Of a DNA stretch of 64,000 nucleotides, positions 6,701 through 33,846 are shown piece after piece. This stretch comes from Verrucomicrobiota bacterium (GTDB taxonomy: Bacteria > Verrucomicrobiota > Verrucomicrobiia > Limisphaerales > Palsa-1400), in contig JBEKYR010000015.1 in NCBI GenBank assembly GCA_049510745.1, positions 1-64,000 of the forward strand, written 5' to 3'. Under the pieces are notes generated by a model. The model had not been told where the DNA came from, searched no databases, and worked only from the letters and a program-made list of their open reading frames with translations. Positions within the stretch are counted from its first letter, which is position 1; each line of letters begins with the position of its first letter. A program made the translations under genes and the position numbers.

Positions 6701-6712
6701 CAATGTTTCTTT

Positions 6713-7069
6713 ATGAGTGAACCAATCCTCTTACGAGTTTATGACGTTGTGGCTGGCGACCGCTGCGTGGACACAGCCGACGCCCAGCGGGTTCACGACA
6801 AAATCGCGCCTCTCTTGCGTAATGACACCGGGGTCGTTCTTTCGTTCGATGGCATCACCATGGTCATCACCGCCTTTCTCAACGCTGCCATTGGCCAGCT
6901 TTACGGCGAGTTTCCCGAAGAAAAGGTGGATCGCCTCGTTGAAGTACGCGACCTTCTGCCCGTTTTCAAAACGACGCGCGACAAATCGCGCGAATGGTCC
7001 AAAGCCTATTTCCGCGACCCGGAACGGATCAAGCGTAGTATCCAGGAGGTCATGGGAAATGAAGAATAA
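6713..7069 (+). CDS. STAS-like (DUF4325-type) protein
   Basis: VVLSFDGITMVITAFLNAAIGQLY motif; follows the HATPase. Confidence 0.8.
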   Translation: MSEPILLRVYDVVAGDRCVDTADAQRVHDKIAPLLRNDTGVVLSFDGITMVITAFLNAAIGQLYGEFPEEKVDRLVEVRDLLPVFKTTRDKSREWSKAYFRDPERIKRSIQEVMGNEE

Positions 7070-7628: not shown

Positions 7629-10426
7629 GTTCCGCCCAGCCGAAAAAGCTCATCGAGGTCGCACTGCCGTTGCCGGAAATCAACGATGCATCGGCTTACG
7701 ACAAAATGCCGGGCATCGGGCCGCACCCGAAAGGCATTCATCACTGGTGGGCTCGGCTGCCGCTTCCGACGGCGCGGGCAGTTTTGTTCGCGTCCGTCGT
7801 GGATGATCCGTCGGCGCACCCGGAGAAATTTCCCACCGAGCAAGCGCAGAACGCAGAGCGCGAGCGGCTGTTTGAAATCGTGCGGCGCCTCATGCAGAAG
7901 AAATTGCATGAGCATCCCGAGATTTATGCCGCAGCGCGGCGTGAGATGGAGAAGTATTGCGATGGCAAACTCCCGCCGGTCCTCGACCCTTTTGCCGGCG
8001 GCGGCTCCATTCCGCTGGAAGCGGTGCGCTTGGGCTGCAAAGCGCACGCGGCGGATTTGAATCCCGTGGCCGTGCTGCTCAATAAGTGCAACTTAGAAAT
8101 CGCCCCCCGCTGGGCCGGCCACGCTCCGGTCAATCCGGCAGACCGTCGTGGAATTGGCGGCTCGCAAAGCTGGATTGGAACATATGGGTTGGCGGCGGAC
8201 GTTCGCTACTACGGAAAAGTCATCCACGAGCGCACGCAGGAAATACTCGGCCACCACTATCCGAAGGTGCAATTGCCAAAGGAACATGGCGGCGGGGCGG
8301 CGAATGTCATCGCGTGGCTTTGGGCGCGCACTGTCGCCAGCCCCGACCCGGCAGCGCGCGGCGCGCATGTGCCGCTTGTTCGATCATTCACAATTTCAAG
8401 TAAGGGTGAAAAAATATGGATCGAACCGACCATTGACCGTGCGAGTAGGACAATCGAATACACGGTCAGGACAAGCGGTATTCCCACGGTAAAAGGCACT
8501 ATGTTGCGCACAGGCGGCAAATGCCTATTTAGCGGCAACCCTATTCCTCTGGATCACATTCGGTCTGAAGGCAAAGCTGGCCGGTTAGGCCAGCATCTCA
8601 TTGCCATTGTCGCCGAGGGAAGGCGCGGAAAAGTCTTTCTCTCACCCAATGACCTTCACGCGAAGTCGGCAGATGTTCCATTTCCAGAAAACTATCCTGA
8701 CACCGATCTCCCTGACCAGGCGTTGGGCTTTCGAATTCAGAAGTATGGATTTGAAAAGCACTGGCAAATGTTCACCCCGCGTCAACTCGCTGCTACTGTT
8801 GCTCTAAGTGATGCGATCCGGGCGGTACGCCCGGAAATTGTCGGACAGGCCAAGGTTGCGGGCCTCTGTGAACGCGATGCGGAGGATTACGCTAAATCCA
8901 TTACAACATTCTTGGCGCTCGCACTCAACAGACTCGCTTCGTTCAACAACGGATTCTGTCGGTGGAACGGTAATCAAACAGTGTTCATATTTACACGCGC
9001 AGCCATTCCAATGCTGTGGGATTTCGCTGAGGCAAATGTCTTCGGAGACAAAGCCATTTGTTGGTTGACTTCACTGGATATTTGCGCCGAAGCTGTTGAG
9101 ACGCTTCTGATGGCCAGAACGGAGAGCGGCACCGTAAATCAGGCTGACGCTGCTGGAGGATCCCCCGAAATCTTATCGGCATTGGTTAGCACAGACCCTC
9201 CATATTACGACAACATCGGCTACGCAGCGCTTAGTGATTTTTACTACATCTGGCTGCGCCGAACCGTTGGTGAATTACACCGGCCAATTTGTGACACGTT
9301 GCTCGTCCCAAAGATGCGCGAGCTGACTGCATCACCGGAACGATTTGACGGCGATAAAGAGAAAGCCAAAGAACATTTCGAATCCGGTTTTCGTCGCGCG
9401 TTTTCTGGACTCCGAGATCGGCTCGATCCACGCTTTCCGCTCACTGTTTATTATGCCTTTAAGCAAGACGACGAAGAAGCAGGCGGTAATGCTGATGACG
9501 ACAATGACAGTAAAGGAAGCGTGGACTTGACGACCGGGTGGGAAACCCTCTTAGAAGCCCTCACCTCGAGCGGTTTCCAAATCACAGCAACTTGGCCGGT
9601 GCGCGCATCTTTCGAGTGGCGAATGCGTTCATTACAGTCTAACGCGCTCGCATCATACATCGTGCTCGCGTGTCGCGCTCGTTCGGCAAACGCACCGCGC
9701 GTCGGCAGGAGCGCCTTTGTCGCCGAGTTGAAGCGCGAGTTGCCGCCCGCTTTGCGCCACTTGCAGCAGGGCAACGTGGCGCCGGTGGACTTCGCCCAGG
9801 CCGCCATCGGCCCCGGCATGGCCGTGTTCTCCCGTTTCTCCCGCGTGCTCGAAAGCAGCGGCCAGAGCATGACCGTCCGCACCGCGCTGGCTCTCATCAA
9901 CCAGATTCTCGGCGAAGTCCTCACCGAGCAGGAAGACGAGTTTGACGCGGACACCCGTTGGGCGCTGGCGTGGTTCGAGCAAAAGGGTTTTGCCGAAGGC
10001 GAGTTTGGCGACGCCAACACGCTCGCTACCGCCAAGAACACTGCCGTCAACGGCCTTGTGGACGCCGGTATCCTTTATTCCACCCGTGGAAAAGTTCGCC
10101 TGCTCCGCCCGGAGGAACTCAAAAAAGACTGGGACCCCAGCACCGACAACCGACTGACAGTGTGGGGGATGACCCACCACCTGCTGCGGGTATTTTACGC
10201 GGAGAAACAGGGGGAAACGGCCACCGCAGCCTTGATGCGCAAGCTCGCCGGCCGGGCCGAAGTCGCCCGCGATCTGGCCTACCGCCTCTTCCGGCTGGCC
10301 GAAAAGCACCACTCGCAGGACGCGCAAGCTTACAATGCGCTGGTGCTGGCGTGGCCCGATTTGATACGTTTAGTCCAAGAGCAGCAACCGACGCGAACCA
10401 TTCAGCCGGATTTGCCCGAGAGCTAA
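7625..10426 (+). CDS. DUF1156 adenine-specific DNA methyltransferase
   Basis: KKLIEVALPL..IN, HHWWARLPL, DPFAGGGSIPLEA, TDPPYYDN. Confidence 0.92.
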   Translation: MSSAQPKKLIEVALPLPEINDASAYDKMPGIGPHPKGIHHWWARLPLPTARAVLFASVVDDPSAHPEKFPTEQAQNAERERLFEIVRRLMQKKLHEHPEIYAAARREMEKYCDGKLPPVLDPFAGGGSIPLEAVRLGCKAHAADLNPVAVLLNKCNLEIAPRWAGHAPVNPADRRGIGGSQSWIGTYGLAADVRYYGKVIHERTQEILGHHYPKVQLPKEHGGGAANVIAWLWARTVASPDPAARGAHVPLVRSFTISSKGEKIWIEPTIDRASRTIEYTVRTSGIPTVKGTMLRTGGKCLFSGNPIPLDHIRSEGKAGRLGQHLIAIVAEGRRGKVFLSPNDLHAKSADVPFPENYPDTDLPDQALGFRIQKYGFEKHWQMFTPRQLAATVALSDAIRAVRPEIVGQAKVAGLCERDAEDYAKSITTFLALALNRLASFNNGFCRWNGNQTVFIFTRAAIPMLWDFAEANVFGDKAICWLTSLDICAEAVETLLMARTESGTVNQADAAGGSPEILSALVSTDPPYYDNIGYAALSDFYYIWLRRTVGELHRPICDTLLVPKMRELTASPERFDGDKEKAKEHFESGFRRAFSGLRDRLDPRFPLTVYYAFKQDDEEAGGNADDDNDSKGSVDLTTGWETLLEALTSSGFQITATWPVRASFEWRMRSLQSNALASYIVLACRARSANAPRVGRSAFVAELKRELPPALRHLQQGNVAPVDFAQAAIGPGMAVFSRFSRVLESSGQSMTVRTALALINQILGEVLTEQEDEFDADTRWALAWFEQKGFAEGEFGDANTLATAKNTAVNGLVDAGILYSTRGKVRLLRPEELKKDWDPSTDNRLTVWGMTHHLLRVFYAEKQGETATAALMRKLAGRAEVARDLAYRLFRLAEKHHSQDAQAYNALVLAWPDLIRLVQEQQPTRTIQPDLPES

Positions 10427-10433
10427 ATGACGT

Positions 10434-13400
10434 ATGGCCATCACGAATCACGAACGAGTCGGCAAGGCGCTGGAGATGTTGACCGGCGGCCTCAAACCTT
10501 TTGTCGAACGCGAACTCAAGAGCACTTACCAGCAGGGCTGGTTCGAGGTGACGCGAAAAACAATGGCCGCCAGCCAACTGCAATTTCTCGGCAACGCCGA
10601 GACTCCGCAGTGGGATGCCCAAGCCTTGTTGCTCACGCTCTGGAATCAGTGGAACGAGGTTTTTCGAAAAACGCTTGGACAAGCCGAGCGCACCCTCGTC
10701 AGCGAGTTGCGCGAAGTGCGCAACCGCTGGGCGCACCAGCGGCCATTCAGCACAGATGACGCCTACCGCGCCCTCGACAGCATCGCCCGCCTGCTCACCG
10801 CCATTTCCGCGCCGGAAGCATCCGAGGTGGACAAGCTGAAAGTGGAGTTACTGCGCGTCCGGTTTGATGAGCAGGTCCGAACGGAAAAGCGCAAAGCTGC
10901 CAGCGGCGCAATTGAAGGCGAGAGTGTCGCCGGCCTCAAACCGTGGCGCGAAGTCGTCACGCCGCATAAAGATGTGGCCAGCGGCAAGTACCAGCAAGCC
11001 GAGTTCGCCGCCGACTTGTGGCAGGTCCACATGGGCGAGGGCACGGACGAATATCGCAACCCCGTGGAATTTTTCCGGCGCACTTTCCTGACGCAAGGTC
11101 TGCGCGATCTTCTTTCAGGCGCCTTGCTGCGCCTTTCCGGCCAGGGCAGCGATCCCGTAATCGAACTGCAAACGAATTTCGGAGGCGGCAAGACGCACTC
11201 AATGCTGGCGCTATATCACTTGTTCTGCGGGATGAAGGCGTCCGAACTGCCGGGACTTGAGCCGGTGTTCGAGAAGGCAGGCGTGAACAAGATTCCCGCT
11301 GCCAAGCGTGTTGTCATCGTCGGCAACAAGATTTCTCCCGGCTCACCAAGTCGCAAACCCGATGGCACGGTCGTCCGCACCCTTTGGGGCGAACTCGCCT
11401 GGCAACTCGGCGGCAAGGAAGGCTTCGCGCTCGTGAAGGAAGATGACGAGCGCGCCACCAGCCCCGGCGACACCCTGCGCGTGCTCTTCAACAAATACGC
11501 GCCGTGCCTGATTCTTATTGACGAGTGGGTCGGTTACGCGCGCATGTTGCATGACGCCGCTGACTTGCCGGGCGGCACATTCGAAACCCACTTTACCTTT
11601 GCGCAGACGTTGAGCGAAGCCGCGAAGGCGGCGAAAAACACCTTGCTCGTCGTCAGCATCCCGGCCAGCGAAAGCGGTGTCGTCAGCCCAGGCGGCAGCG
11701 AGATCGCCGACGTGGAAGTCGGCGGCGAACGAGGACGCCACGCCTTGGAGCGACTGAAGAACGCCATCGGTCGCGTGGAATCTTCGTGGCGACCAGCCAG
11801 CGCGGACGAAGGCTTCGAAATTGTCCGCCGGCGCCTGTTTGAATCTCTCGCCGGCGACTCGCATGTCGCGCGCGATCTCACCGCCAAGGCATTCATGGAA
11901 CTTTACCGCAACCAGCAGCAGGAATTTCCTCCTGAATGCCGCGAGGCGGATTATGAACGAAAACTCAAAGCGGCGTACCCGATTCATCCAGAGGTTTTTG
12001 AACGACTGTACCAGGACTGGTCCAGCCTCGTAAAATTCCAACGCACGCGCGGCGTGCTGCGGCTCATGGCTGCGGTGATTCACTCGCTTTGGGAAAAGCA
12101 GGACCGCAACCCGCTCATCCTGCCCGCAAACCTTCCGATTGATGACCCGCGCGTTCAATTTGAACTCACGCGCTACCTGCCGGACAACTGGGTGCCAGTC
12201 ATTGAAAAGGACGTGGACGGTCCGAACTCGCTCCCGCTCCGCATCGACGGGGAAAAACCGAATCTCGGCCGTTATTCCGCCTGCCGCCGTGTGGCGCGCA
12301 CGGTTTATCTCGGCTCCGCTCCAACAGCGAAGGCTGCCAACCGGGGAGTCGAAGACAGGCGTGTCAAACTCGGTTGTGTCCAGCCCGGCGAAGCACCAGC
12401 CATTTTTGGCGACGCGCTTCGCCATCTCGCTCAGCAGGCAACTTACCTTTACGCGGACGGCGCTCGGTATTGGTATTCTACACAACCGACGGTTACCAAG
12501 CTGGCTGAAGACCGTGCCGAGCAGTTGAAATCTGACCCTGATGCCGTTGCCGATGATGTGAAGAAGCGCGTAATCCAGGACGCCAGGCAACGCGGGGACT
12601 TCAGCCGGCTCCACGCGTTTCCGCAAACCAACGCGGACGTACCCGACGATCCTGACGCCCGGCTTGTCATCCTCGGCGTCGAATATCCCCATACAAAGGA
12701 CCAGGAAAGCACGGCATTGGTCGCGGCCAAGACCATGCTGGAAAGTCGAGGCACTGCGCCGCGTATCTACCGAAATGCGCTTGTTTTCCTCGCCACCGAC
12801 CGCACCCGGCTCCTCGATCTTGATGAAGCCGTGCGACGATACCTAGCGTGGAACTCAATCGTTCAGGAATCCGAAGGCGACGAGCCGTCTCTGAACCTCG
12901 ACGCACACCAACGGCGCCAGGCAAAGAACCAGCGCGACAATGCCGAAACCACCGTCAGCGCTCGCATTCCGGAAACCTACCAATGGCTTCTTGTTCCGAC
13001 GCAGTCGAAGTCCCAGGACCCCGTCCAGTGGCAGGCGTTCCGATTGCAGGGACAGGAAGCACTCGCTCTCCGCGCCAGCCGCAAGTTGAAGAACGACGAG
13101 TTGCTGGTGTCCAAACTCGCCGCCTCGCGACTGCGCTTGGAACTGGACAACGTCCCGCTCTGGCGCGGCGACCATGTCTCTATCAGGCAACTGGTGGAAG
13201 ATTTTGCCCGCTATCTTTACCTGCCTCGGTTGCGCAACTCGCAGGTACTGGTGGAAGCCATTCACGAAGGCATCGCCCTTTTGAGTTGGCAGCAAGATTC
13301 TTTCGCCTACGCCGACAGTTTCGACGAAGCAGTCAGACGGTATCGCGGCCTCCGTTTTGGCCAGCAGATGCCGATGGGGCAGGACGAACTTTCCGGCCTT

Positions 13401-13793
13401 CTGGTCAAACCGGAAGCGGCCATGAAACAGTTCCAAGCCGAGCAAGCTGCCACCGCTACCGCCATCGGCGGAGCGCCAATCGCGCAACCCGGCAAGGCGG
13501 GCCAGCCAACCCCAACGGAAACCGAAGGCGATCTTGGTAAACCGCAACCGCCGGCCAAACCAAAACGTTTCTACGGGTCCGTTCAATTGAATCCGCAGCG
13601 CGTCGGCAAGGACGCCGGCAAAATTGCGGAAGAGATCGTTCAACATCTCGCCTTACAGCCAGGCGCGACCATCGAGGTCACACTCGAAATCCAAGCACAG
13701 ATGCCCGAAGGCGCCCCTGAAAACATCGTCCGCATCGTCACAGAGAACGCCCGCACCCTCAAATTCTCCTCCCACTCCTTCGAAAAGGAGTAG
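10434..13793 (+). CDS. DUF499 AAA+ ATPase with N-terminal Swt1-like HEPN domain
   Basis: ELREVRNRWAH (RxxxxH), LQTNFGGGKTH, LILIDEW, YPIHP, FQRTRGVLR. Confidence 0.9.
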   Translation: MAITNHERVGKALEMLTGGLKPFVERELKSTYQQGWFEVTRKTMAASQLQFLGNAETPQWDAQALLLTLWNQWNEVFRKTLGQAERTLVSELREVRNRWAHQRPFSTDDAYRALDSIARLLTAISAPEASEVDKLKVELLRVRFDEQVRTEKRKAASGAIEGESVAGLKPWREVVTPHKDVASGKYQQAEFAADLWQVHMGEGTDEYRNPVEFFRRTFLTQGLRDLLSGALLRLSGQGSDPVIELQTNFGGGKTHSMLALYHLFCGMKASELPGLEPVFEKAGVNKIPAAKRVVIVGNKISPGSPSRKPDGTVVRTLWGELAWQLGGKEGFALVKEDDERATSPGDTLRVLFNKYAPCLILIDEWVGYARMLHDAADLPGGTFETHFTFAQTLSEAAKAAKNTLLVVSIPASESGVVSPGGSEIADVEVGGERGRHALERLKNAIGRVESSWRPASADEGFEIVRRRLFESLAGDSHVARDLTAKAFMELYRNQQQEFPPECREADYERKLKAAYPIHPEVFERLYQDWSSLVKFQRTRGVLRLMAAVIHSLWEKQDRNPLILPANLPIDDPRVQFELTRYLPDNWVPVIEKDVDGPNSLPLRIDGEKPNLGRYSACRRVARTVYLGSAPTAKAANRGVEDRRVKLGCVQPGEAPAIFGDALRHLAQQATYLYADGARYWYSTQPTVTKLAEDRAEQLKSDPDAVADDVKKRVIQDARQRGDFSRLHAFPQTNADVPDDPDARLVILGVEYPHTKDQESTALVAAKTMLESRGTAPRIYRNALVFLATDRTRLLDLDEAVRRYLAWNSIVQESEGDEPSLNLDAHQRRQAKNQRDNAETTVSARIPETYQWLLVPTQSKSQDPVQWQAFRLQGQEALALRASRKLKNDELLVSKLAASRLRLELDNVPLWRGDHVSIRQLVEDFARYLYLPRLRNSQVLVEAIHEGIALLSWQQDSFAYADSFDEAVRRYRGLRFGQQMPMGQDELSGLLVKPEAAMKQFQAEQAATATAIGGAPIAQPGKAGQPTPTETEGDLGKPQPPAKPKRFYGSVQLNPQRVGKDAGKIAEEIVQHLALQPGATIEVTLEIQAQMPEGAPENIVRIVTENARTLKFSSHSFEKE

Positions 13794-20283: not shown

Positions 20284-20736
20284 ATGAACGACGACACCAT
20301 CCTCATCGGCACGCGCCAGGGCTGGGGCCAGCAACTCCCCTTTGGAATTCAAATTTCAGAGTTGCGCCATCACGTTTATGTGATCGGAAAAACCGGGAGC
20401 GGCAAAACCACCCTCCTGCGGAACTCGATCATCCAGCTCATCGCCCTTGGCCACGGTGTCGGATTCATTGATCCCCACGGGGATATGGCGGAGGAACTTT
20501 TGCACCACATCCCCTCCTGGCGCGCCGACCATCTGGTCTATTTCAATCCGGCTGACCTCGACTTCCCTATCGGATTGAATCTGCTGGCCAATGTCTCCCC
20601 AGACGAGCGGCATCTTGTGGCGTCGGGGATTGTCGGCGCGTTCAAGAGCATTTGGCACGACTCCTGGGGGCCGAGAATGGAATACATCCTCCACAATGCG
20701 ATTGCGGCGCTGTTGGAATGGGCGCTGGCCGGGTAA
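20284..20736 (+). pseudogene. VirD4/HerA-like type IV coupling ATPase, N-terminal fragment
   Basis: RHHVYVIGKTGSGKTTLL, FIDPHGD, SWGPRMEYIL; similarity stops at ~20718. Confidence 0.85.
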
Positions 20737-21148
20737 TCCTCCAGACGGCACGCCAAAATACAAGTTGCCCACCGGGTTCAGGAAAGGGTTGGAACTGTTC
20801 AACCTCGACCGGGCCGTCAAGGAGCCGCTGGACAAACCGCTGGTGATCGTTGAGGGCTTCTTTGACGCCATCAAGCTTCACCAGAACGGTTGCCGCAAGG
20901 TCGTTGCCCTCATGGGCAGCAGCCTGTCTGCCGGCCAGGAGGAATTGATCCGCAAAAACACCAACGGCCAAAGCCAAGTCATCGTCATGCTCGACGAAGA
21001 CGACGCCGGCCGGGCCGGGCGCGATGACATCGCCGCCCGCCTCGCCAAGTTCTGTTTCGTCAAGATGCATCAGTTCGAGAAACCCGGCACCCAGCCAGAG
21101 CACCTGTCCGCCGAGGACGTGGCCCAATTGTTTGGAGGTGTCGCGTGA
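20720..21148 (+). pseudogene. DnaG-like primase, C-terminal TOPRIM fragment
   Basis: GR.....PKY, IVEGFFD, VALMGSSLS, MLDEDDAG; Zn-finger N-terminus missing. Confidence 0.85.
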
Positions 21149-21447
21149 AGCGTTACGAAGGACGACGAACCGGCCAGGGCGTTGAGGTCACCGTTGACGG
21201 GCAGCCGCTCAATCCCCGGCTGGACTTGTGGAATCACAGTCCAACCGGGTTCGAGTGGGGCTATGCCGGCAGTGGGCCGGCGCAATTGGCGCTGGCACTG
21301 TTGGCAGATTGTCTCAGCGACGATCAGGAAGCCGTCGAGTGGCATCAAGACTTCAAGTCCGCCGCTGTGGCCGGTTTGCCTCATGCAGGCTGGACACTCA
21401 CAGAACAGGAGATTCAGGAAACCCTCAACGCGTTCGAGAACGAATGA
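21145..21447 (+). CDS. DUF6166-like small protein
   Basis: NHSPTGFEWGYAGSGPAQLALALL. Confidence 0.75.
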   Translation: MKRYEGRRTGQGVEVTVDGQPLNPRLDLWNHSPTGFEWGYAGSGPAQLALALLADCLSDDQEAVEWHQDFKSAAVAGLPHAGWTLTEQEIQETLNAFENE

Positions 21448-21540
21448 AGGAGGTTCATCATGGATGTTCACTGTTCCGCCTGTGGCGATTCTGGGAGACG
21501 ACGAGGACGGCATCGCCGCCACGATGGAGGATTTTGGGTT

Positions 21541-21828
21541 ATGAACATACGAAACCCTTCCCTTGCGAAGTTTCCCCTGGGCCAAATCGTTGCCACGCCG
21601 AACGCGCTCACAAGGCTTGCCCAGGACGACATCCTGGCAGCCATTCAGCGGCACCAGGCCGGCGATTGGGGCGACGTGCCGGAGGAGGACCGCCAGGAGA
21701 ACGAATTGTCCCTGCAACAGGGCTTTCGCCTTCTTTCGGCGTATCGCTCCGCCCAAGGAGTCAAATTCTGGATCATCACAGAATCCGACCGAAGTGCCAC
21801 GACGGTTTTGCTCCCGGAAGACTATTGA
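21541..21828 (+). CDS. Conserved plasmid/ICE-associated small protein
   Basis: FPLGQIVATPNA...RH..GDWG...EN......RLLSAY...FWIITE.DRS.TTVLLPEDY. Confidence 0.8.
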   Translation: MNIRNPSLAKFPLGQIVATPNALTRLAQDDILAAIQRHQAGDWGDVPEEDRQENELSLQQGFRLLSAYRSAQGVKFWIITESDRSATTVLLPEDY

Positions 21829-21835
21829 AATCACG

Positions 21836-21862
21836 CCTCCCCCAACGGGGAGGTTTTTATTT
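21836..21862 (+). terminator. Rho-independent terminator
   Basis: CCTCCCC-AAC-GGGGAGG followed by TTTTTATTT. Confidence 0.8.
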
Positions 21863-21989
21863 GGGTTTGAGTCCGATCCGCGGAACGTGACTTGGGAATT
21901 CCCACAACGCCTCGACGGAATACTGGCTTTACTTTTTTACCAACCTATGAAAATCTCACCGTCATGAAACGGCGCGACTTTTTGACGAA

Positions 21990-22610
21990 ATGGGGAAGGA
22001 TGACATGAAAAAGGGAGAACACTATTCCGTTCTTAAGAACGCGGGTTTACCAATTCCCATTTACGGTGTGTTCGATTCGTCCTGTCTGACTGATAACGTC
22101 AGAAAATCCGAGTTGCGAAATTGCGTCGAACGCATTCTGGCAGAGGGTAGCGGCCTCATTGGGGTTAGAACTGAACCGAAGGAGCGCCAATCGGCTTTGG
22201 GAGATTATCCGCATTACATGCCGCTTCGTACTTTTGAAGAAGTAATCGAGGCGATCAAACGCAATGAGCGTGAGTGGTCACAGGATCGTTGGTGGTATTT
22301 GGTCAACGAGGCTTTTTTGGATTACGAATGGAACGCCGTCGTAAAACTAACGCAGGAGGGTCCTCTTCCGGGTCATTGGAAATTGGACGGAGAAGTTAAT
22401 GTGACGGACAATCTTCCGTTGCGACCGGCCCTAGCAAATGCGGTTAATTTGATTCGGGCAAACAAATGGACCGGAATCGATTCTGCTCAGGTGCGAAGGT
22501 ATATTCTCCGGTCAGGATTGCTTGAGAAATGGCTGGAGATTTCCAAGGTGCGCACACCGAAAGGGCCACGTCTGGTCTTCTGGGGAATGCGTGGCACGGA
22601 TCAAAAATAA
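21990..22610 (+). CDS. Hypothetical protein, possible minimal ATP-grasp (PPDK_N-like)
   Basis: KG....L..AGLPIP, LIGVRTE, terminal LEIS....RLVFWGMR recall PPDK/PEP-synthase nucleotide-binding motifs; weak. Confidence 0.45.
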   Translation: MGKDDMKKGEHYSVLKNAGLPIPIYGVFDSSCLTDNVRKSELRNCVERILAEGSGLIGVRTEPKERQSALGDYPHYMPLRTFEEVIEAIKRNEREWSQDRWWYLVNEAFLDYEWNAVVKLTQEGPLPGHWKLDGEVNVTDNLPLRPALANAVNLIRANKWTGIDSAQVRRYILRSGLLEKWLEISKVRTPKGPRLVFWGMRGTDQK

Positions 22611-22620
22611 AAGGTCGTCG

Positions 22621-23679
22621 ATGGAAGTGTTGACCAAATTGTTCCCCGTAAAACCCACCAAGGTTTACGAGACATTCTGGAAGTTTGCCGCTGAACGGCA
22701 GGAAATTTTTTTTCGTAGGTTTCGGGGTGAGTCTCCTCCCTGGACGAGGGACGTGATTCTGGCCGAACACAAATTCACCAATGCGTATCGTGCTTCTGAC
22801 CGCGTCAGTCAGCACTTAATAAGGAACGTGATCTATCAGGGAGACCAGGCACCGAAGGAAGTGTTTTTCCGATGCATGCTTTTTAAGATTTTCAATCGCG
22901 TGAGCACGTGGAAACTTTTAGAGGCAGAGCTTGGTGAGGTTCGTTATTCAACGTATTCTTTCAGCCACTATAACGACATTTTGACACGCGCGATGCAGCG
23001 CGGGGAACGGATTTTTTCTGCCGCGTATATCATGCCTTCCCACGCAGCGGGATTTAGCGCTACCTTTAAGCATCGGAATTATTTAGCCCTTCTGGAGAAA
23101 ATGATAACGGATGAAGTTCCATCCCGGCTGCTTGATTTGAAGTCTATGGCCAGCGCTTTTGAATTGCTCCGCAGTTATCCCTTAATGGGAAATTTTCTTG
23201 CGTATCAATTTGTGACCGACCTCAATTACAGCAAGATACTGAATTTTTCGGAAATGGATTTTGTGGTTGCCGGGCCGGGTGCAAAGGACGGAATCAGGAA
23301 GTGCTTCACGACGACCAGTGAACATGCTGAAGCCGATCTGATCAGGCTCATTGCAGATCGGCAGACCGAGGAGTTTGATAGGCTGGGGCTGAATTTTCGA
23401 TCTTTGTGGGGCAGGCCGCTCCAGTTAATCGACTGCCAAAATCTGTTTTGTGAAGTCAGCAAGTACGCGCGTTTGGCCCATCCGGAAATTCCAGGCGTCA
23501 GCGGCCGTACGCGGATAAAACAAAAATTCACAAGAAATCCAGAGCTTATTCACTATTGGTTTCCTCCAAAATGGGGCCTCAACGATCTAATTTTAGCAGG
23601 GTCCGAACACGCTCTTACAGAACATTTTCCGAATACTAAGGCCGCCCAGTCTCGACTGTGCCTTGGGTTCAGACCATGA
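22621..23679 (+). CDS. 5-hmdU DNA kinase helical-domain (aGPT-Pplase1 clade) protein
   Basis: ERQ.IF.RR.....PWT.D.IL..HKFTNAYRASDRVSQ, G.FLAYQ..TDLNYS, GPGA.DG, CQNLFCEVSKY. Confidence 0.85.
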   Translation: MEVLTKLFPVKPTKVYETFWKFAAERQEIFFRRFRGESPPWTRDVILAEHKFTNAYRASDRVSQHLIRNVIYQGDQAPKEVFFRCMLFKIFNRVSTWKLLEAELGEVRYSTYSFSHYNDILTRAMQRGERIFSAAYIMPSHAAGFSATFKHRNYLALLEKMITDEVPSRLLDLKSMASAFELLRSYPLMGNFLAYQFVTDLNYSKILNFSEMDFVVAGPGAKDGIRKCFTTTSEHAEADLIRLIADRQTEEFDRLGLNFRSLWGRPLQLIDCQNLFCEVSKYARLAHPEIPGVSGRTRIKQKFTRNPELIHYWFPPKWGLNDLILAGSEHALTEHFPNTKAAQSRLCLGFRP

Positions 23680-23817
23680 ATTATTCACCGACCACGTTAA
23701 TCCAATGATTTTGAATAACTCAACGACTCGGAATTGTGGACAGTTGGGGTTTGGTGTAAAAGTTTTAGGCACAATGACTTGCGACGGTTTCTCCATTGCG
23801 CGATGCTCTTGGGAGCG

Positions 23818-24897
23818 ATGCATCTCTTTGAAGGAACAACTGCAAATGAAGTCTGGTTAAAGGCCGCCTCGAGATTTGAGAACTCCGAGGGAACGCACGA
23901 GCAGTCGAGCCGCGCCGGTCAAACCAAGGAACTTCTCGGTGCTGCATTTACCATTCACGATCCGCGACAGCGGTGGGTATCGTCCAGGCAGCCTTCAATA
24001 AATCCTGCATTCGCCATTGCCGAGGTTGTGTGGATCGTAAGCGGACGGCGCGATTCTGCGTTTCTCAATTACTGGAATCCGAAGCTTCCGCAGTTCGCAG
24101 GTGGCGGAAAGAATTATCATGGGGCCTACGGGCATCGCATCCGAAAACACTTTGGCTTGGACCAGTTGGAAAGGGCGTATCAGGCCTTGCAACAAAATCC
24201 TGATACCCGCCAAGTGGTCCTCCAAATTTGGGATTCATCCGTGGATTTCCCCATGCCGGATGGTAGTCCGGCAGACCCGGACATTCCGTGCAATGTCTGT
24301 GCTTTTGCCAAAATTAGGAACGGCAAATTGGAGTGGACCCAAATCCTCCGTAGCAATGATTTGTTTCTAGGGGTTCCACACAATTTTGTGCAGTTCACAT
24401 CGCTTCAGGAAATTCTCGCAGCTTGGCTGGGTATTGATGTTGGCTACTACCGCCACGTTGCGGACTGCCTTCACGTTTATGTGCGCGACCAGGAAAATGT
24501 CCAGGACTCGGGGCGGATTACTCCCGAAACAAACACCGACATTTTACGATTCACCAAGGCCGAATCAGACGTTTTCTTTGCAGAGATGAGCAAGCGCATG
24601 GAGCGCATGACAAGCGTGTTGCTGACGCACAGAAAATTGGGGCATTTGGCTCGGGCTGAAAATTTCCCCAAGGAACTTTGCAATTGGCTTTTGGTTGTGG
24701 CTGCGGACTGCGCGCGCAGACACAGATGGATTAATCTTTCCTACGAATTAATGACCGAATGTTCGAATCCAGCTCTGAGACAGTTATGGGAGCGATGGCT
24801 CGCCCGTTGGTGGCGGGTGCGCCAGGAGGAAACCGTTTCCCCCGAGGCGGTCATTTTCGCGCAGCCGTGGTTGCCACTGCGCCTCAATCCCGTTTGA
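23818..24897 (+). CDS. Thymidylate synthase-fold enzyme (dUMP methyl/hydroxymethyltransferase-like)
   Basis: GAYGHR, DQLE, PDTRQ, DIPCN (catalytic Cys), RSNDLFLGVPHN, CLHVY. Confidence 0.88.
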   Translation: MHLFEGTTANEVWLKAASRFENSEGTHEQSSRAGQTKELLGAAFTIHDPRQRWVSSRQPSINPAFAIAEVVWIVSGRRDSAFLNYWNPKLPQFAGGGKNYHGAYGHRIRKHFGLDQLERAYQALQQNPDTRQVVLQIWDSSVDFPMPDGSPADPDIPCNVCAFAKIRNGKLEWTQILRSNDLFLGVPHNFVQFTSLQEILAAWLGIDVGYYRHVADCLHVYVRDQENVQDSGRITPETNTDILRFTKAESDVFFAEMSKRMERMTSVLLTHRKLGHLARAENFPKELCNWLLVVAADCARRHRWINLSYELMTECSNPALRQLWERWLARWWRVRQEETVSPEAVIFAQPWLPLRLNPV

Positions 24898-25516
24898 CAG
24901 TTTTGGTGCGGTCTTCGAGCAACGACTTGGCTCGCGCTATCACCTCTTCTGCTGAAAGGTTGACAGTTGAGACGACGATCGCATTCGGAAAGCATGTAAA
25001 GAGTTGCACGAAGTGGTTTCTTACCCGTTCAAACCAAGTGAGCGGCGGCGTGCGCGATTTCCCCCAACGTTGAAAAACTCGCTGACGCAGCACATCGGCG
25101 GGTGCATCCAACAGCAAAACGGTGCGTGGACACCGCCACTCCTTCAGCTTTTCCTCGATTTTCATCAAGCGCTCCAATAGTGAGGCATATTGCGTCTCGG
25201 TCATTTTGCCGTCCTCCAAAAAAATCCGTGAATATGCCAACACGATCGCTGCCGGGTCTTGGTCCAAAATGAGGGGTGAACGCGAATTGGCACGGCTGAT
25301 GCACCGACCGATACGCCGGAGAAACCATTCTTGATTCGCTGCCGCATTGAAGTCGAGGTTTCCCTGCAGCAAGCCTTTCAGATGTGGATTGCCGTTTGTC
25401 GTTTCAATAAACACTGGATACCTGTTGGAAAGAGCTCTAACGACGGTAGTTTTTCCGACACCGGAGGGACCACAAAGACTCAAAATCGATGCGGTCACAT
25501 TGCTTACTTCGGTCAC
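24884..25516 (-). CDS. P-loop deoxynucleoside/nucleotide kinase
   Basis: GPSGVGKTT, LILDQD, LLDAPADVLRQRVFQR lid region. Confidence 0.78.
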   Translation of the reverse strand: MTEVSNVTASILSLCGPSGVGKTTVVRALSNRYPVFIETTNGNPHLKGLLQGNLDFNAAANQEWFLRRIGRCISRANSRSPLILDQDPAAIVLAYSRIFLEDGKMTETQYASLLERLMKIEEKLKEWRCPRTVLLLDAPADVLRQRVFQRWGKSRTPPLTWFERVRNHFVQLFTCFPNAIVVSTVNLSAEEVIARAKSLLEDRTKTVKRD

Positions 25517-25533
25517 GCCACACCTCGTTTATG

Positions 25534-26292
25534 TCACTTTCGACGGAAAAAACGCCCTAACAAAAGCACAGCAATTCCCACAAACAACGCCGTGAAAATG
25601 ATCAGTGCCCCAACACCTATCCTATCCGCCTTCTCTCCGAACCAATGATCGAACATGGCGGCCACCAATCCAATAATCAACGGGAATATAACAACAACCC
25701 CAATAATCTTCATCCTGTCAACGCTTTCTTCGATGCTCTTAAGTCGCGCATGCAAAGTTTCAGGAGAGTGGCGGGGTTTCGACATTCGATCACGATCTTC
25801 GGTTGTAAATCCAGATTGGTCCCTGTGCGTTCCACCCTTGTGATCTTCATCCTCTGCATCCAGAGTCGCAAACCAAATGAGAAAGCATGGTTCAAGAAAG
25901 TTGAGATGAACATCCTCGCCACTCGCATTGTAAACCGAGAACTTAATATGGCCAGGAAACCCAGGATCGACCTGAAAACCGGAAATGTTAATGAGCCCTT
26001 TAAACTTAACGCCGCCCTTCAGGGATATAAAGGCAATCACGTTCGGTGGAATGTTCACGCACTCCTCGCTGAACAGGAGCGCGAACTGTCCCGGTGGGAT
26101 TCTAAGGGCCTCCTCAGTAACGGAGCGTAACCCGGTTGTTGACTCGTCCGGCGTAATGAGAATCTTCCGGCTGAGAGATAATTCATAAGCCCCACGGTTA
26201 ACACGATTCTTGTCATAGGGCCAAATCAGAGGAAGATTCTTGTGTTTTGTTTCATCCAGCTTGTGTTTGATAGTTTGGGTTGACCAGAACAT
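25534..26292 (-). CDS. dCTP deaminase/dUTPase-fold protein fused to two C-terminal TM helices
   Basis: YELSL, IPPGQFALL..EE, VDPGFPG; hydrophobic IIGVVVIFPLIIGLVAAMF and IGVGALIIFTALFVGIAVLLLG. Confidence 0.8.
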   Translation of the reverse strand: MFWSTQTIKHKLDETKHKNLPLIWPYDKNRVNRGAYELSLSRKILITPDESTTGLRSVTEEALRIPPGQFALLFSEECVNIPPNVIAFISLKGGVKFKGLINISGFQVDPGFPGHIKFSVYNASGEDVHLNFLEPCFLIWFATLDAEDEDHKGGTHRDQSGFTTEDRDRMSKPRHSPETLHARLKSIEESVDRMKIIGVVVIFPLIIGLVAAMFDHWFGEKADRIGVGALIIFTALFVGIAVLLLGRFFRRK

Positions 26293-26313
26293 ATTATAAT
26301 GCTGTTTGAGGGT

Positions 26314-27111
26314 TCATTTCACGAGCGAATTTTTACGCAGTCCGAGGCATTTGTCGAGCATGTTTGTCACGTCCCTTTTCCCGATCCCCTCTTTATCCAA
26401 AACCGCCATTGTGGAGTGGCAAACAAACTCTGCCGCCTCGATGCCAGCTTCATGGGCAACGAAGTCCTGAAGCATGGCGAGGCCATAAAAGTTGCCGAGG
26501 GCGCGTTCAAGGTAATAGTGGGAGCGGTAAAGGGCAGTTAACAAAAGGCTCTTATCGCCTTTCAGCTTGAAGCTGAGGTGACTCAGACAAGGTCCGCCCA
26601 TGTGAAAACCCTTGTCCGTGACAGGATCATAAATCGGAATATCGAGGAACGGTTCAATCAGATTCAGTTCATAAACTGCGCGTTTTGGCGCACGGACTGC
26701 GACTTGGTGACGAAGTTTATTGATGAGGTATTCTAATGGATTGATTTCACTGCCGTCATTGTCTGTTCTGGTGGTCATTCGCATGAAGTACGTCCCCCAT
26801 TTCGTGTCCTCATGATCTTCCAGCATCGGCGTAATCTTGCGGTACCGCTCGAAAAGGCTGGATGCTCCGTGTGTTGCATATAATGAGGCCGGGAAGATTG
26901 TGTTTATGATGGTGCTGACGGAATGCTTGCCGTTGGATACCAGAAAGTCATTTACCTCGAAGGATATCTGCTTATCGACTTCGGAAAGGCTCATGGGGCG
27001 CGTGATCTCGAGGACCACATTATAATCTCGCCACTCGTCCTGGCTGCGAAGATGCTCGGTTGCCGTCAACCACCCTTCGGTGCAGGATTCAGCTCTGATG
27101 ATCTCTCTCAT
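26314..27111 (-). CDS. Divergent thymidylate synthase-fold protein
   Basis: GTYFMRM, GGPCLSHLSF, LTALYRSHYY, ALGNFYGLAMLQDFVA. Confidence 0.72.
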   Translation of the reverse strand: MREIIRAESCTEGWLTATEHLRSQDEWRDYNVVLEITRPMSLSEVDKQISFEVNDFLVSNGKHSVSTIINTIFPASLYATHGASSLFERYRKITPMLEDHEDTKWGTYFMRMTTRTDNDGSEINPLEYLINKLRHQVAVRAPKRAVYELNLIEPFLDIPIYDPVTDKGFHMGGPCLSHLSFKLKGDKSLLLTALYRSHYYLERALGNFYGLAMLQDFVAHEAGIEAAEFVCHSTMAVLDKEGIGKRDVTNMLDKCLGLRKNSLVK

Positions 27112-27116
27112 AATTG

Positions 27117-27566
27117 CTAAATTATCACAGAAGTTAAAATCAAACGATTTTCCAGATAGCCCTTTTCCACGAAGGCATGCCCGTTCAGGCCCCACGTAGA
27201 TCCCCAACTGTTGCGCACCAAAACGCAACTTCCTTTCGCGGTTGTTCCATGTCCAACCGCTATCATTGCGTGATTTCCAGTGTCAGGATCGGGGCTCTTT
27301 TCCCCAACAACGCCTTCCGTATTGGGCGAATAAAAGCTTTCGCTTATGCGAACGCCGAGTAAAACAGGTCGCCCCGCATCGAGCAAGCCGCAAACTTGAT
27401 CGAACGATGTGCTACCAAGCGGGAGTTCTCGGCGAAATACCTGAAACGTGTCTGGTGGACTGCCGAGCGCCAAAGCCCCAGCAGTGGTATTCTGATATGG
27501 CCATTGGCTCTCATAAGGCTGCCCTTCTTTAAGCAACGCGTCAGATGCGGCACGTGCGGTAATTCC
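27117..27566 (-). pseudogene. Papain-like C1 peptidase, N-terminally truncated
   Basis: GQP.E..WPY, GNHAMIAVG, VRNSWG..WG.NG; catalytic-Cys region missing, upstream part of the listed ORF is antisense of the T4CP fragment. Confidence 0.8.
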
Positions 27567-29024
27567 CTTCTGATTGAACCGGCCTTCCGCGCCGAGTTCC
27601 TCACAACCGTTACCGACCCCGAATTGGTCTATTACTGGCAGAAAGTCTTTCCCCAATTGACCGGCAACCGCTCCGTTGGCCCGGTCCTGACTCGCCTCCA
27701 GGGCTTCATGAGCCAAAAGCCCATCCGCAACATGGTGTCGCAGTCGGAAAACAAACTCGATTTTGCCCACATCATGGACACCGGCAAAATCTTTCTGGCC
27801 CGGTTGCCGGAGGGATCTGGCGAGGAGAATTCGTTCCTCCTCGGGACTCTGCTCGTCTCAAAGTTCCAACAAATCGCCATGAGCCGCCAGTCGCAAGCCA
27901 TGTCCGCGCGCCGGGATTTCTGGCTCTATATTGACGAGTTTGACGATTTCATCACGCCGACGATGGCGAAGATTTTGAAGGGTTTGCGCAAATATCGCTT
28001 CGGACTCACGCTGGCCCACCAGGAATTGCACCAATTGCAGAGCGACCCGAAAGTGGCGAGCGCGGTTGCCACGCATCCAGGCACGCGGATTGTCTTTCGG
28101 GTTGGCGACGACGATGCCAAGCGGCTCGCGGAGAGCTTTTCCTCTTTCGACGCGCAGAGCTTGAAGAATCAGGCGAAATTCCACGCCATCGCCCGCGTGG
28201 AGCGGAGTGATTGCGATTTCAACCTGACAATCCGGCAACCGGAAAAGTCGGATGACGCGCAATGCGAGCGACGACGGCAAGAAGTCATCACGGCTTCGAG
28301 AAAAAAGTATGCGAGACCACGGGTGGAAGTTGAAGCGGCGTGGCGTGCAAGACTGGAAACGGTGACCCTAGTGCCTGAGCAACCCAAGCCCAAGCCGATT
28401 GCAGCAATCCTTCCGAAAGTTGCGGAAACAAAGCATGTTCCGCATGTTGCTGAAGTTCCGAAAACAGCAGTGGAGGAAAAATCGGCGACCGCGGAAACCG
28501 GGGACCAGGATAGCGACCACAATGCAATCAAGAAGCTGATTTGCAGAGAGGCGGGAGCCCTGGATTATACCGCAACCATTGAAGAACTTCTCCCGTCAGG
28601 CAGACGGGTTGACGTTGTCTTGCGACGGGGGAATCGATTGATTGCCTGCGAAATCGCCGGGACAAACACTGTGGAGTACGAGGCCGCCACCAACATAACC
28701 AAGTGTCTTGAAGCCGGGTTTGGCCATGTCGCCTCCATTTGCAGGGATCGGAAGAAATTGGGGAGAATTCAGCAGCGGCTTGCTGCCATGACGCCGGCTG
28801 ACGAGACCGCCAAAGTTGGCTTCTATGTGCCCGATGAGTTCATTTCCTTGCTTTCTGACTGGGCCTTCGCCGACCCGGAGGGCGGCAAGATAGAGAAAGG
28901 AAAGCCAAAGAAGCAGGACGTGCCCTTGGGCCCTGTAACCATGACGCCAGCCGAACAAGAAGAGCTTGAACGCCAAATGCTGGATGAAATGCGGAAAAGG
29001 ATGAAAGGCGGGGCGTCCGATTAG
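27567..29024 (+). pseudogene. VirD4-like coupling ATPase, C-terminal fragment with nuclease-like tail
   Basis: LYIDEFDDF, LRKYRFGLTLAHQELHQL, IVFRVG; tail RVDVVL....IACEIA; Walker A absent. Confidence 0.8.
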
Positions 29025-30968: not shown

Positions 30969-31181
30969 ATGCCACAATACGCAGATTTTCCCATCACCAG
31001 CGTCTGCCGCGCCGACCTCGAAAGCATCGGGTTTGACGCGAGCGGCGTGGACGACGCCACGATGAGGGAGCTTGCCGGAAAGCTCGCCGACGACTATTGC
31101 GAGCAGTTGTTTTGGGGCAGTCTGGACATCATCGCCGATTATCTCAAAATCCCGAAACGCGCACCCGTGCGCGTCTCATGA
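30969..31181 (+). CDS. Small acidic hypothetical protein
   Basis: FPITSVCRADLE..GFD...VDDATM.ELA.KLADDYCEQLFW. Confidence 0.65.
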   Translation: MPQYADFPITSVCRADLESIGFDASGVDDATMRELAGKLADDYCEQLFWGSLDIIADYLKIPKRAPVRVS

Positions 31182-32345
31182 CCTTGCCGCCGTGTCGTTT
31201 CCGGCCGCGTCCGCTTGGGCGCCGAACATCGGAAGCGCGGTCACGGCCGTTTTGAGCGCCGCCATTTGCAGATGGGTGTAGCGTTGATTCGTCGGCTTGG
31301 ATGTATGGCCGGTCAGCTTCATGCGGATTTCCTCCGCCACGCCAGCATTGGCCAGCGCGGAATTGAAGCTGTGCCGCAGGGAATGGAAAGTGCGCTTGGT
31401 GAAGTTCCGCGTGCCCTTGCCTGGTACGGTCATCGGGTCAATGCCGGCTTTCTTCACGATGCGCTTGAACCCCTCCGACAGCCCGTGTTTGCCGCCAGAA
31501 CCTTTGGCCGCCAGATTCGGGCAGAGGAACCCCGTCGTCTTGAAGGTGGACAGATAATTCAAGTGCTTAATCACGTGAAAGTGCATCGGCACAACCACTT
31601 TTTTGCCGGTCTTTTGCTGGGTGTAAACGATTGCCCCAAGTTCAGGATTGACGTTGTCCCATTTCATTTGCACGCAATCGCCCAATCGGGCGCCGATAAA
31701 ATACCCAAGGAGAATCAGCGTCTGCCATTCCAAAGACGGCGCCGCCTCCAAAAGTCTCCGAACTTCTTCGCTCGTGAACACCTCACGCTCCGAGGACTCG
31801 GCTTTCGGCGGACGGACGGCGGCAACCGGATTTTTCAAAATCGTCCCGAACGCTTCCGCGCGGCGAAACGCTGTGTTCAGCGTTTTCAAATCAATTATCG
31901 CGGTCTTTGGCGCCACGCCGGTGTTTAACCGCCACGTCAAAAAGTCTTCGATGTCCTTTGGCGCCACCGACGTCACCGGCTTTTTTGCCCTGCCATTCAA
32001 GCTTGCGACGAAGAGCTTGACCGTATTCCGGTAGCGTTCGAGTGTGGCCGGTGAATTACGGGCGGCGATGCTCGTGAGCCAATCGGCCAGATAATCCTCG
32101 ACTGGCGGCGTGGAGAGCGAATCGCCGGTGACTTTTTCCGAAACTTCGCTCAACACCTTCCGCAGTTGCATGGTTGTCAAAGACCCCGCCCGCGCCTTCT
32201 TTTCCACCCCTTCCAATCCCAAAGCGATTTGCATCGCCTGACCTCGATCCGTCGTCTTGGTTGACTTCTTCAATTGCCGTCCATCGCGGCTGGTGAAGCA
32301 GGCCATCCAGAACGGAGATTCCTTGCGTTTGAGAATGTTCGCCAT
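31176..32345 (-). CDS. Tyrosine recombinase/integrase
   Basis: N-terminal arm-binding-like region; GARLGD, KTG, FHSLRHSF, LTGH, Y. Confidence 0.95.
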   Translation of the reverse strand: MANILKRKESPFWMACFTSRDGRQLKKSTKTTDRGQAMQIALGLEGVEKKARAGSLTTMQLRKVLSEVSEKVTGDSLSTPPVEDYLADWLTSIAARNSPATLERYRNTVKLFVASLNGRAKKPVTSVAPKDIEDFLTWRLNTGVAPKTAIIDLKTLNTAFRRAEAFGTILKNPVAAVRPPKAESSEREVFTSEEVRRLLEAAPSLEWQTLILLGYFIGARLGDCVQMKWDNVNPELGAIVYTQQKTGKKVVVPMHFHVIKHLNYLSTFKTTGFLCPNLAAKGSGGKHGLSEGFKRIVKKAGIDPMTVPGKGTRNFTKRTFHSLRHSFNSALANAGVAEEIRMKLTGHTSKPTNQRYTHLQMAALKTAVTALPMFGAQADAAGNDTAARS

Positions 32346-32907: not shown

Positions 32908-33112
32908 TCAGGAGAGTTTTGCCCACGCCGTTGGGGCCGTGGAGCAAGCCGCAGGCCCGAACGGCGACCCACTGTTCGAGGCGGCGGCGGGTTTCCTTAA
33001 AGGTGTCCGAGGCATACGGTTTTTCCACCAACGCGCCGAAGGGCAACTGGCTGGCGCCCCAGAGGGTTTTGAGGGCGGTGTCCAAGTCAAGAGGATTTAT
33101 CGCGGCGGTCAT
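32908..33112 (-). pseudogene. ExeA-like AAA ATPase of a transposon, truncated after Walker A
   Basis: LPF...GLLHGPNGVGKTLL, then similarity ends; overlaps the end of the DDE gene. Confidence 0.7.
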
Positions 33113-33740
33113 AATCGCGGTCGGTATAGGTTTTGGCGTTGAGTTGTTTGTCGCAACGGCGGGCTGGGCCGACATATTTGTCGTCCCGCCAGATTTCGAT
33201 CCGGCGCCAGCCAAAGGAATCGAAGCGCACCTGGATGAGTTGGCCGCGCAGATGAACAGGCGCTTCCCACAGTTGGCCCTCCAGACTAAAGGTGGCGTCC
33301 AGGCGCACGCGGCGCTGGGTGCGGGACAGGAAGAGGCCCTCCCAGTCGGTTTGACTATCGGCCGTGCGCAAGTTGACCGCGCTTTGGGCGAAGCGTTCAG
33401 CCGGAGTCTGCCCTTCCAAGGCGCTGTGAGGCCGTTGGTGATATTCGCTTTCAATCCAACGCCAGAGGCGGGCATTGAGTTCTTCCAGGGTATGGACTGG
33501 GTCGAGGATCAGGCGGGCCTCGAAATCCATTTGCAGGGTGCGAAACCAGCGCTCCTGCTTTCCCCGCGACCAGGCCGCATAAGGCTGGGCGTGGCACAGC
33601 CTCACCCCCAGATTGGCGCACACGATTTGCAGATGATAGCTGGTGAAGATTTTGCCCTGATCGGTGTCGAGTTTTTCGGGGAAGCCGCGCCGGGCCAGGC
33701 CCTGCCGGAACCAATCCTGGAGACGAACGGGCCAAGGCCT
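33087..33740 (-). pseudogene. DDE transposase (rve + Mu-type C-terminus), 5' truncated
   Basis: PEKLDTDQGKIF, GKQERWFRT, YHQRPHSAL..QTP, RRVRLDAT. Confidence 0.85.
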
Positions 33741-33846
33741 GTTGCCTGCCTTCGATGAGTCCCTTCCCTTCCGAGGCTGAGATCGTCGAGAAACCGCATC
33801 CGGGACCATTCCCAATCATCGGAAAAGACGAGAAAGACGAATTTGT

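Follow-up and report, generated by a model that had tools for sequence, protein, structure and literature searches.

The Escherichia coli defense system DS-4 (working id NTTI), validated by DefensePredictor in 2026, consists of a thymidylate synthase (TS), a dNMP kinase, an HMUDK_hel protein, a TIR protein and Nmad2 (PMC13092281). The passages of that report available to us give no mechanism for the system, and the name 'DS-4' is absent from its main text. Kongming (KomABC), as described in the available portions of its preprint, senses dITP with a catalytically dead HAM1 protein and pairs with varied nucleotide-modifying genes, UDG and NTPase among them (bioRxiv 10.1101/2024.12.20.629578). 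Here we compare these systems with a seven-gene locus in a 64,000-nucleotide stretch of a Verrucomicrobiota genome (GCA_049510745.1, contig JBEKYR010000015.1, positions 1 to 64,000; hereafter the window). The locus encodes DCD-TM, a membrane protein with the fold of dCTP deaminase (DCD) and dUTPase. We tentatively assign the locus to a modular and widespread type of anti-phage cassette resembling DS-4, of which this copy is partly eroded. By analogy with Kongming, and on an equally provisional footing, DCD-TM would act as a receptor that detects a modified deoxyuridine nucleotide and is linked to a membrane effector.

Four minus-strand open reading frames (ORFs) at 24884-27572 are separated by gaps of 5, 21 and 17 bp, and three convergent plus-strand genes at 21990-24897 face them; the trio and the four form one unit of seven genes. 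An earlier note on this DNA had described the minus-strand run, from a truncated peptidase gene through a TS-like and a DCD-2TM gene to a kinase gene with gaps of 5-21 bp. The ORFs and gaps proved correct, but TS2, HMUDK_hel and ORF206 on the opposite strand had been overlooked. The seven genes are:

27117-27572, minus strand: papain-like (C1) peptidase remnant (59% identity to residues 63-212 of the full-length peptidase of locus L083)
26314-27111, minus strand: TSL, a divergent TS-fold protein (Foldseek matches to TS/MilA, E 2e-10; motif counts; neighborhoods)
25534-26292, minus strand: DCD-TM, a DCD/dUTPase-fold pseudo-enzyme with a coiled coil and two transmembrane (TM) helices (PF22769, E 1.5e-7)
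24884-25516, minus strand: P-loop deoxynucleoside/dNMP-kinase-like protein (PF01712, E 1.2e-5, below cut-off)
23818-24897, plus strand: TS2, a second TS-fold enzyme, predicted dUMP hydroxymethylase (PF00303, E 6e-22)
22621-23679, plus strand: HMUDK_hel / aGPT-PPlase1, HhH glycosylase-like fold (PF18723, E 5.6e-113)
21990-22610, plus strand: ORF206, a 206-aa protein, possibly ATP-grasp-like (ortholog in locus L001, E 2e-93)

The window shares with DS-4 a TS gene and an HMUDK_hel (PF18723) gene, and its kinase may correspond to the nucleotide kinase of the DS-4 core; the TS of DS-4 and TS2 have in common a D-I-P-C-N motif, a likeness judged by motif (supplement of PMC13092281, as available). DS-4 also has TIR and Nmad2, whereas the window has neither; among related loci carrying a DCD-TM gene (the best 80 of 537 from GTDB genomes, spread over many phyla and biased to close relatives) 15 have TIR and 15 have Nmad2. 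Conversely, DS-4 is without DCD-TM, TSL and the peptidase, all three of which the window has, and the window differs further in its two convergent arms and its dNK-type kinase. Without TIR or Nmad2, the window is not DS-4 in the strict sense. The earlier note had proposed a novel system; we too found no named system of this layout, but because the core resembles that of DS-4, 'new system' is too strong.

Kongming and the window are alike in logic only, that of a dead nucleotide-sanitizing fold as sensor. In Kongming the signal is a purine (dITP), the sensor has the HAM1 fold and a Sir2 NADase serves as a separate effector, whereas in the window TM helices are joined to a dUTPase/DCD fold and the signal is hypothetical; no HAM1 sensor, Sir2 effector or deaminase was found among the seven genes. 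The TM effectors of CBASS, Pycsar and Thoeris join a nucleotide-binding domain to TM helices and stand beside nucleotide-processing enzymes. These domain-TM fusions are akin to DCD-TM, and the seven genes gave no match to a cyclase, CD-NTase or TIR. The window is not a member of Kongming, CBASS, Pycsar or Thoeris.

The genes of phage thymidine hypermodification (dUMP hydroxymethylase, 5-HMUDK, aG/PT-PPlase) are homologues of TS2 and HMUDK_hel, as far as the accessible parts of the reports show (PMC5889632, PMC8989533). Eubacterial homologues of these phage genes were noted in such a passage by Lee 2018, citing Aravind and coworkers (PMC5889632). The window differs in being bacterial, with related loci in defense-like islands where effector-like and regulatory genes are present, and in showing neither a PLP enzyme nor a clade-2 transferase. 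Bacterial aGPT-PPlase1 neighborhoods were reportedly first described by Iyer et al. in Nucleic Acids Research in 2013, and the prediction of the wider gene family is credited to Aravind and coworkers.

The DCD-TM protein

Structure models were made with AlphaFold2 and compared by Foldseek. The DCD-TM model (pLDDT 90; 89-90 for TSL and DCD-TM) matches the dCTP deaminase/dUTPase fold (E 6e-13) and has helices at residues 177-218 and 227-250. TM-scores over the target were 0.70-0.85 for DCD, bifunctional DCD-dUTPase and archaeal dUTPase (1xs1, 4xjc, 9ln0), which share with it the DPG motif including its Asp. DCD-TM differs from these enzymes in its family-specific N-x-S-G-F motif, its C-terminal coiled coil and TM helix, and the replacement of the motif-4 Gln and of the residues equivalent to Ser111, Arg115 and Glu138. 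Its TIGR02274 score is 52.3 bits against a cut-off of 92.8.

In a profile alignment G93, F97 and S119 of DCD-TM fall on Ser111, Arg115 and Glu138 of E. coli Dcd, which we take to be the catalytic residues (E138 mutants are named among the Foldseek matches); the earlier note had likewise held all three to be replaced. We aligned 221 family members, 209 after dropping those more than 90% alike. None of the 209 has Glu at the Glu138 position, where S, A, W, T or G is found; Ser occupies the Ser111 position in 11 and, going by the commonest residues of the Arg115 position, Arg occurs there in no more than 5. A second set of 141 further representatives of 50% clusters has no Glu and 14 Ser at the Glu138 and Ser111 positions, extending to homologues the loss noted in the single protein. 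As for the residues that presumably form the active site of trimeric dUTPase, the motif-4 Gln is mostly Leu (Gln in 10/209), the motif-2 Ser is present in 11/209 and the motif-3 Asp is kept in 204/209. The pocket residues K96, G99, N102, S104, G105, F106, D109, P110 and N122 are conserved in 204-209 of the 209. Judged from these alignments, the deaminase catalytic residues are lost family-wide while the pocket is kept.

A coiled coil follows the head, and then usually one TM helix: scored by hydropathy, 132 of the 141 representatives have one, three have two and six have none. The two helices reported in the earlier note mark the clade of the window protein and are not a trait of the family, which comprises 830 clusters (50% identity, E <= 1e-30), some of them maybe more distant relatives. 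Its proteins often carry the annotation 'ordinary dCTP deaminase', which is probably wrong. When a complex between HMUDK_hel, the only partner scored, and three DCD heads was predicted, the score was 0.00, which is used neither way. Searches of mainly openly accessible literature did not turn up any account of a catalytically dead TM protein with the DCD fold in defense, the text of two systematic defense screens held no match to DCD-TM, and PADLOC gave no match for DCD-TM, TSL, TS2 or HMUDK_hel. Within the literature searched, DCD-TM is an undescribed component, and it is testable.

Partner genes and neighborhoods

HMUDK_hel is present in 78 of the 80 DCD loci, followed by TSL (58 loci), IrrE (54), TS2 (33), MazG (30), a Tmk-like kinase (26) and, in 11 loci, a helical protein that is labeled dUTPase_2-like on the strength of Atlas (0.90). 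As the loci are partly kin and hence not independent, the significance of co-occurrence patterns among them is overstated. TS2, MazG and the dUTPase_2-like protein are mutually exclusive and together account for 74 loci; three of the remaining six have a radical SAM gene. Every DCD-TM context handles deoxyuridine. For the reverse view we sampled three taxa evenly (1203 genomes listed) and, after excluding the three centre genomes and five weak partial matches, retained 15 HMUDK_hel loci of full or nearly full length, 3 of which reach a contig end; a DCD gene is present in two of the 15. DCD-TM is therefore dependent on a glycosylase-fold core and the core not on DCD-TM, which is an optional add-on and putative effector of the cassette.

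Among nine plasmid DCD matches, HMUDK_hel lies nearby in three (one judged from coordinates only), a UDG-like gene is found instead in five, and the last has only the helical protein and DUF1643. A UDG-superfamily protein replaces HMUDK_hel beside TSL, MazG and DCD-TM in L101, L175-L178 and L180. The constant partner of DCD-TM is a glycosylase-fold protein, be it HMUDK_hel or a UDG-like substitute. Minimal sets of dUTPase_2-like protein, DCD-TM and HMUDK_hel make up 9 of the 80 loci, and no TSL, TS2, MazG, TIR or Nmad2 gene was detected in these. The smallest context (L179, 6468-8324) has the dUTPase_2-like helical protein, DCD-TM and DUF1643, with TS and HMUDK_hel absent. Profile comparisons of dUTPase_2-like with MazG and of UDG-like with HMUDK_hel found no relation. 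A protein of ~210 aa with one N-terminal TM helix and no Pfam match recurs in loci of the TIR/Nmad2 type (8/80; L001 746-1453, L186, L231) and is possibly another effector.

All 46 TS2 relatives keep Cys146, Arg166, Ser167, Asp169, His207 and Tyr209, 44 keep Asn177, and all 46 have Asp at the Leu143 position. According to the part of PMC13326640 available, Leu143 correlates with a hydroxymethylated versus methylated product and Asn177 with the substrate. The best PDB match of TS2 is the MilA hydroxymethylase (6e-28, against 4e-12 for TS), which also has Asp at the Leu143 position, and its top phage matches are SPO1-like and ViI-like, several of them annotated as deoxyuridylate hydroxymethyltransferase. 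On the strength of the full TS site, the change of Leu143 to Asp, and the MilA and phage matches, TS2 is predicted to be a dUMP hydroxymethylase. It is a better nucleotide-modifying candidate than TSL. Nine clustered substitutions in TS2 (24174-24213), seen in low-depth contigs of two runs, probably reflect a related allele.

The kinase shares Walker A, E38, D85 and Q86 with all 61 relatives compared, and the Gln lies in a DQ[DE]P motif without exception (61/61; window 25250-25270). At this place dNK/TMK kinases usually have D/E-R, and with Gln in place of Arg the enzyme may have an unusual substrate or activity. Proteins named as NTP pyrophosphatase fusions are among the relatives. The window type of kinase is found in 1 of the 80 genome loci, and the Tmk-like kinase profile of related loci gave no match to it. 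HMUDK_hel has an HhH glycosylase fold, as stated in a passage of PMC5889632. Its relatives occur in 133 phage records, and Tmk::HMUDK_hel fusions resemble phage 5-hmU DNA kinases. On sphingomonad megaplasmids (L236, L237) HMUDK_hel lies between dnaQ-like and dnaE genes, a context of replication and not of defense. ORF206 holds the same position in the closest relative, L001 (5308-6090), and is linked to HMUDK_hel-TS2 in the window's clade only; PPDK_N, found in 12% of the members of its Atlas cluster, is a lead only.

TSL keeps the PC and RSHY that the earlier note had read in it, and its model has the thymidylate-synthase fold. Equivalents of Cys146, Arg166 and Asn177 are retained and those of Asp169, His207 and Tyr209 are not; in 70 peptidase-linked TSL sequences the latter positions hold Tyr/His/Phe, Ala and Leu/Asp, and the Cys and Asn are invariant. 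By its residues, TSL is without the folate- and sugar-binding positions and does not qualify as a folate-dependent thymidylate synthase. PDB sequence searches with TSL, HMUDK_hel and the kinase were uninformative. TSL is normally the final gene of a module of acyl-carrier-protein (ACP)-like, XRE-HTH, IrrE and, in some cases, papain genes. Distances measured in the same 52 loci correlate at rho 0.84 for TSL-IrrE, 0.29 for DCD-TSL and 0.45 for DCD-HMUDK, all inflated by shared ancestry. Seen from the TSL side, 20 of 80 loci, mostly short metagenome contigs, have a DCD gene, and two of these are identical to the window. On our reading, TSL is part of a separate, normally repressor-controlled arm and is unneeded as a partner of DCD-TM. 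An acyl-carrier-like protein, often joined by a phosphopantetheinyl transferase (the latter in 32/80 loci), was also observed alongside the HTH-IrrE-TSL module (for example in L014, L058, L177 and L181, and in many other loci).

Defense context and the state of this copy

We compared the nearest non-core genes of 43 long loci with control genes taken from the window's genome alone, counting by hand. PADLOC matches at E < 1e-30 were found for 24 of 215 flank genes versus 4 of 118 controls (p 0.013); the matches include restriction-modification, BREX, Gabija, Lamassu, AbiE and Cas9 genes. Together with the DS-4-like core, this enrichment upholds the defense context suggested in the earlier note, and a defense role of the cassette is likely. 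In Gloeothece (L235, 114-4660) a CBASS-type phospholipase gene stands directly before HMUDK_hel-MazG-TIR-Nmad2, which suggests effector exchange. TIR, DUF4231 and the helical protein lie near HMUDK_hel in a halophilic archaeon (L241, 4392-7957). DrmD-like SNF2 helicase, DUF1156 and DUF499 genes lie at 2283-13790 of the window, all under the curated NCBIfam cut-offs; this cluster resembles a described anti-phage cluster.

The closest genome relative, L001, has Nmad2, a TM protein, DCD-2TM and a kinase, then convergent TS2, HMUDK_hel and ORF206. In the window, a 6.8-kb block (20730-27572) splits a TraD/HerA-like coupling ATPase gene into plus-strand pieces at 20284-20733 and 27561-29024. No repeats were found at the block junctions or flanks. 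The peptidase remnant at the right end is without its first 62 residues, the catalytic Cys motif included, and its junction is identical in metagenome contigs L081 and L082. Misassembly was rejected because both junctions are bridged by other contigs, the left by contigs of four studies and the right by L081 and L082, possibly from one and the same site; among the pieces listed for the left junction, none spans the right one. Queries for ACP, HTH, IrrE, TIR, Nmad2, MazG and UDG gave no match in the 94%-complete genome; TIR and Nmad2 were sought by tblastn of the genome with the L011 TIR and L001 Nmad2. A promoter scan stayed at chance level (7 sites versus 5.1). The block, which further contains DUF6166 and the Toprim fragment of a primase, lies ~3.6 kb from an integrase; the tyrosine integrase (31176-32345) and an IS481-like transposase fragment (33087-33815) mark a mobile region.

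Proposed mechanism and rival explanations

Beyond gene content, the steps of the mechanism are what we infer. Infection would disturb deoxyuridine pools or bring in U-type DNA, and TS2 would convert dUMP to 5-hydroxymethyl-dUMP. From this product, or from a counterpart made by the phage, the kinase and HMUDK_hel would form a non-canonical deoxyuridine nucleotide, which trimeric DCD-fold heads may bind without turnover. The coiled coil would relay the change to the TM helices, which would damage or depolarize the membrane, so that the infected cell halts. With somewhat less assurance than for the window, the DCD-TM family as a whole may possibly be the receptor-effector for a new class of immune messengers, base-modified pyrimidine deoxynucleotides such as 5-hydroxymethyl-dUTP or a derivative formed by aGPT-PPlase1 or UDG-fold enzymes.

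Several observations weigh against this account. TS2 is absent from 47 of the 80 DCD loci, so hydroxymethyl-dUMP made by the system cannot be a universal ligand. Many HMUDK loci have no recognizable effector (L188, L224 and L227, for example), and the core may thus act directly on DNA. The dUTPase Asp is kept in nearly all of the 209 sequences and hydrolysis of an unusual substrate is therefore still conceivable, and a lone TM helix followed by a variable tail might serve as a mere anchor. The ACP-HTH-IrrE module is lost from this copy. At 1e-12 the PADLOC comparison gives 33/215 versus 9/118 (p 0.057), which is not significant. DS-4 itself, in its sole table row as a tested system, reached a -log efficiency of plating of 0.93 against lambda, with smaller plaques (PMC13092281, in the part available).

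A direct attack on phage DNA is rather unlikely, though the likeliest of the rivals. TS2 and the kinase would put hydroxymethyl-dU into nascent DNA, or MazG-type enzymes would skew the dU/dT pools that feed it; the glycosylase-fold protein would recognize or excise bases, and DCD-TM would be a membrane-anchored buffer, regulator or scaffold. The interchange of HMUDK_hel with a UDG-superfamily protein fits such an attack, as do the HhH glycosylase fold stated for HMUDK_hel in a passage of PMC5889632, the Tmk::HMUDK_hel fusions that resemble phage 5-hmU DNA kinases, and the 13 of 15 HMUDK loci where DCD-TM is missing, several of them without an effector-like gene. It offers no reason, however, for a helper to give up catalysis while never losing its coiled coil and TM helix, or for phospholipase or TIR genes to occupy the same position. 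Self-modification, in which phage-like thymidine hypermodification marks host or mobile-element DNA and the DCD-fold protein is active with changed specificity, seems improbable. The same enzyme classes make hydroxymethyl-dUTP in T-modified phages (PMC13697223, accessible part), HMUDK_hel relatives occur in the 133 phage records and beside dnaQ/dnaE on megaplasmids, and the catalytic Asp is retained. Against it, DCD-TM has lost the Ser, Arg, Glu and motif-4 Gln, its relatives are found on only two viral contigs, pathways of this kind have no use for a membrane anchor, and TS2 and MazG, both required in a linear pathway, co-occur in 0/80 loci.

The earlier note had cast the TS-like protein and the kinase as makers of a signal for the DCD-2TM effector, in a self-contained minus-strand system. 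The spacing is tight, TSL lies within 8 kb of the DCD gene in 58 of the 80 loci, the TSL>DCD order recurs in the close relatives L084, L085 and L154, and the Cys and Asn are invariant. But TSL is missing from 22 loci, including L001, which retains DCD>kinase opposite TS2-HMUDK_hel-ORF206, and immediately precedes the DCD gene in only 16. It co-varies with IrrE and not with DCD, is without folate- and sugar-binding residues, and its companion kinase is of a type seen in a single genome locus. Because of its absences, its seldom being directly upstream and its tracking of IrrE, we do not take TSL to be the signal maker and give that scheme little credence. We hold it just as improbable that, irrespective of the family's role in other genomes, a rearrangement has left this copy as a decaying relic. 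The peptidase is cut, the block interrupts the coupling-protein-like ATPase gene, and the 94%-complete genome gave no match to ACP, HTH, IrrE, TIR or Nmad2. Set against this, the six other genes are intact with their conserved residues, the surviving set equals the L001 layout, and the DCD gene is immediately preceded by promoter-like sites, though these are at chance level overall.

DS-4-type cassettes span many phyla. If DCD-TM is a receptor for modified deoxyuridine nucleotides, it would provide a signaling mechanism for these cassettes, with phage thymidine-modification chemistry turned into an alarm, and the product of the uncharacterized aGPT-PPlase1 family would be identified. DCD-TM is the most direct handle, as its fold has known ligands (dU/dC triphosphates) and its presumed output, membrane potential, is readily measured; the minimal DCD-TM versions exist for testing. 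Base-modified immune messengers would then extend from purines (dITP) to pyrimidines.

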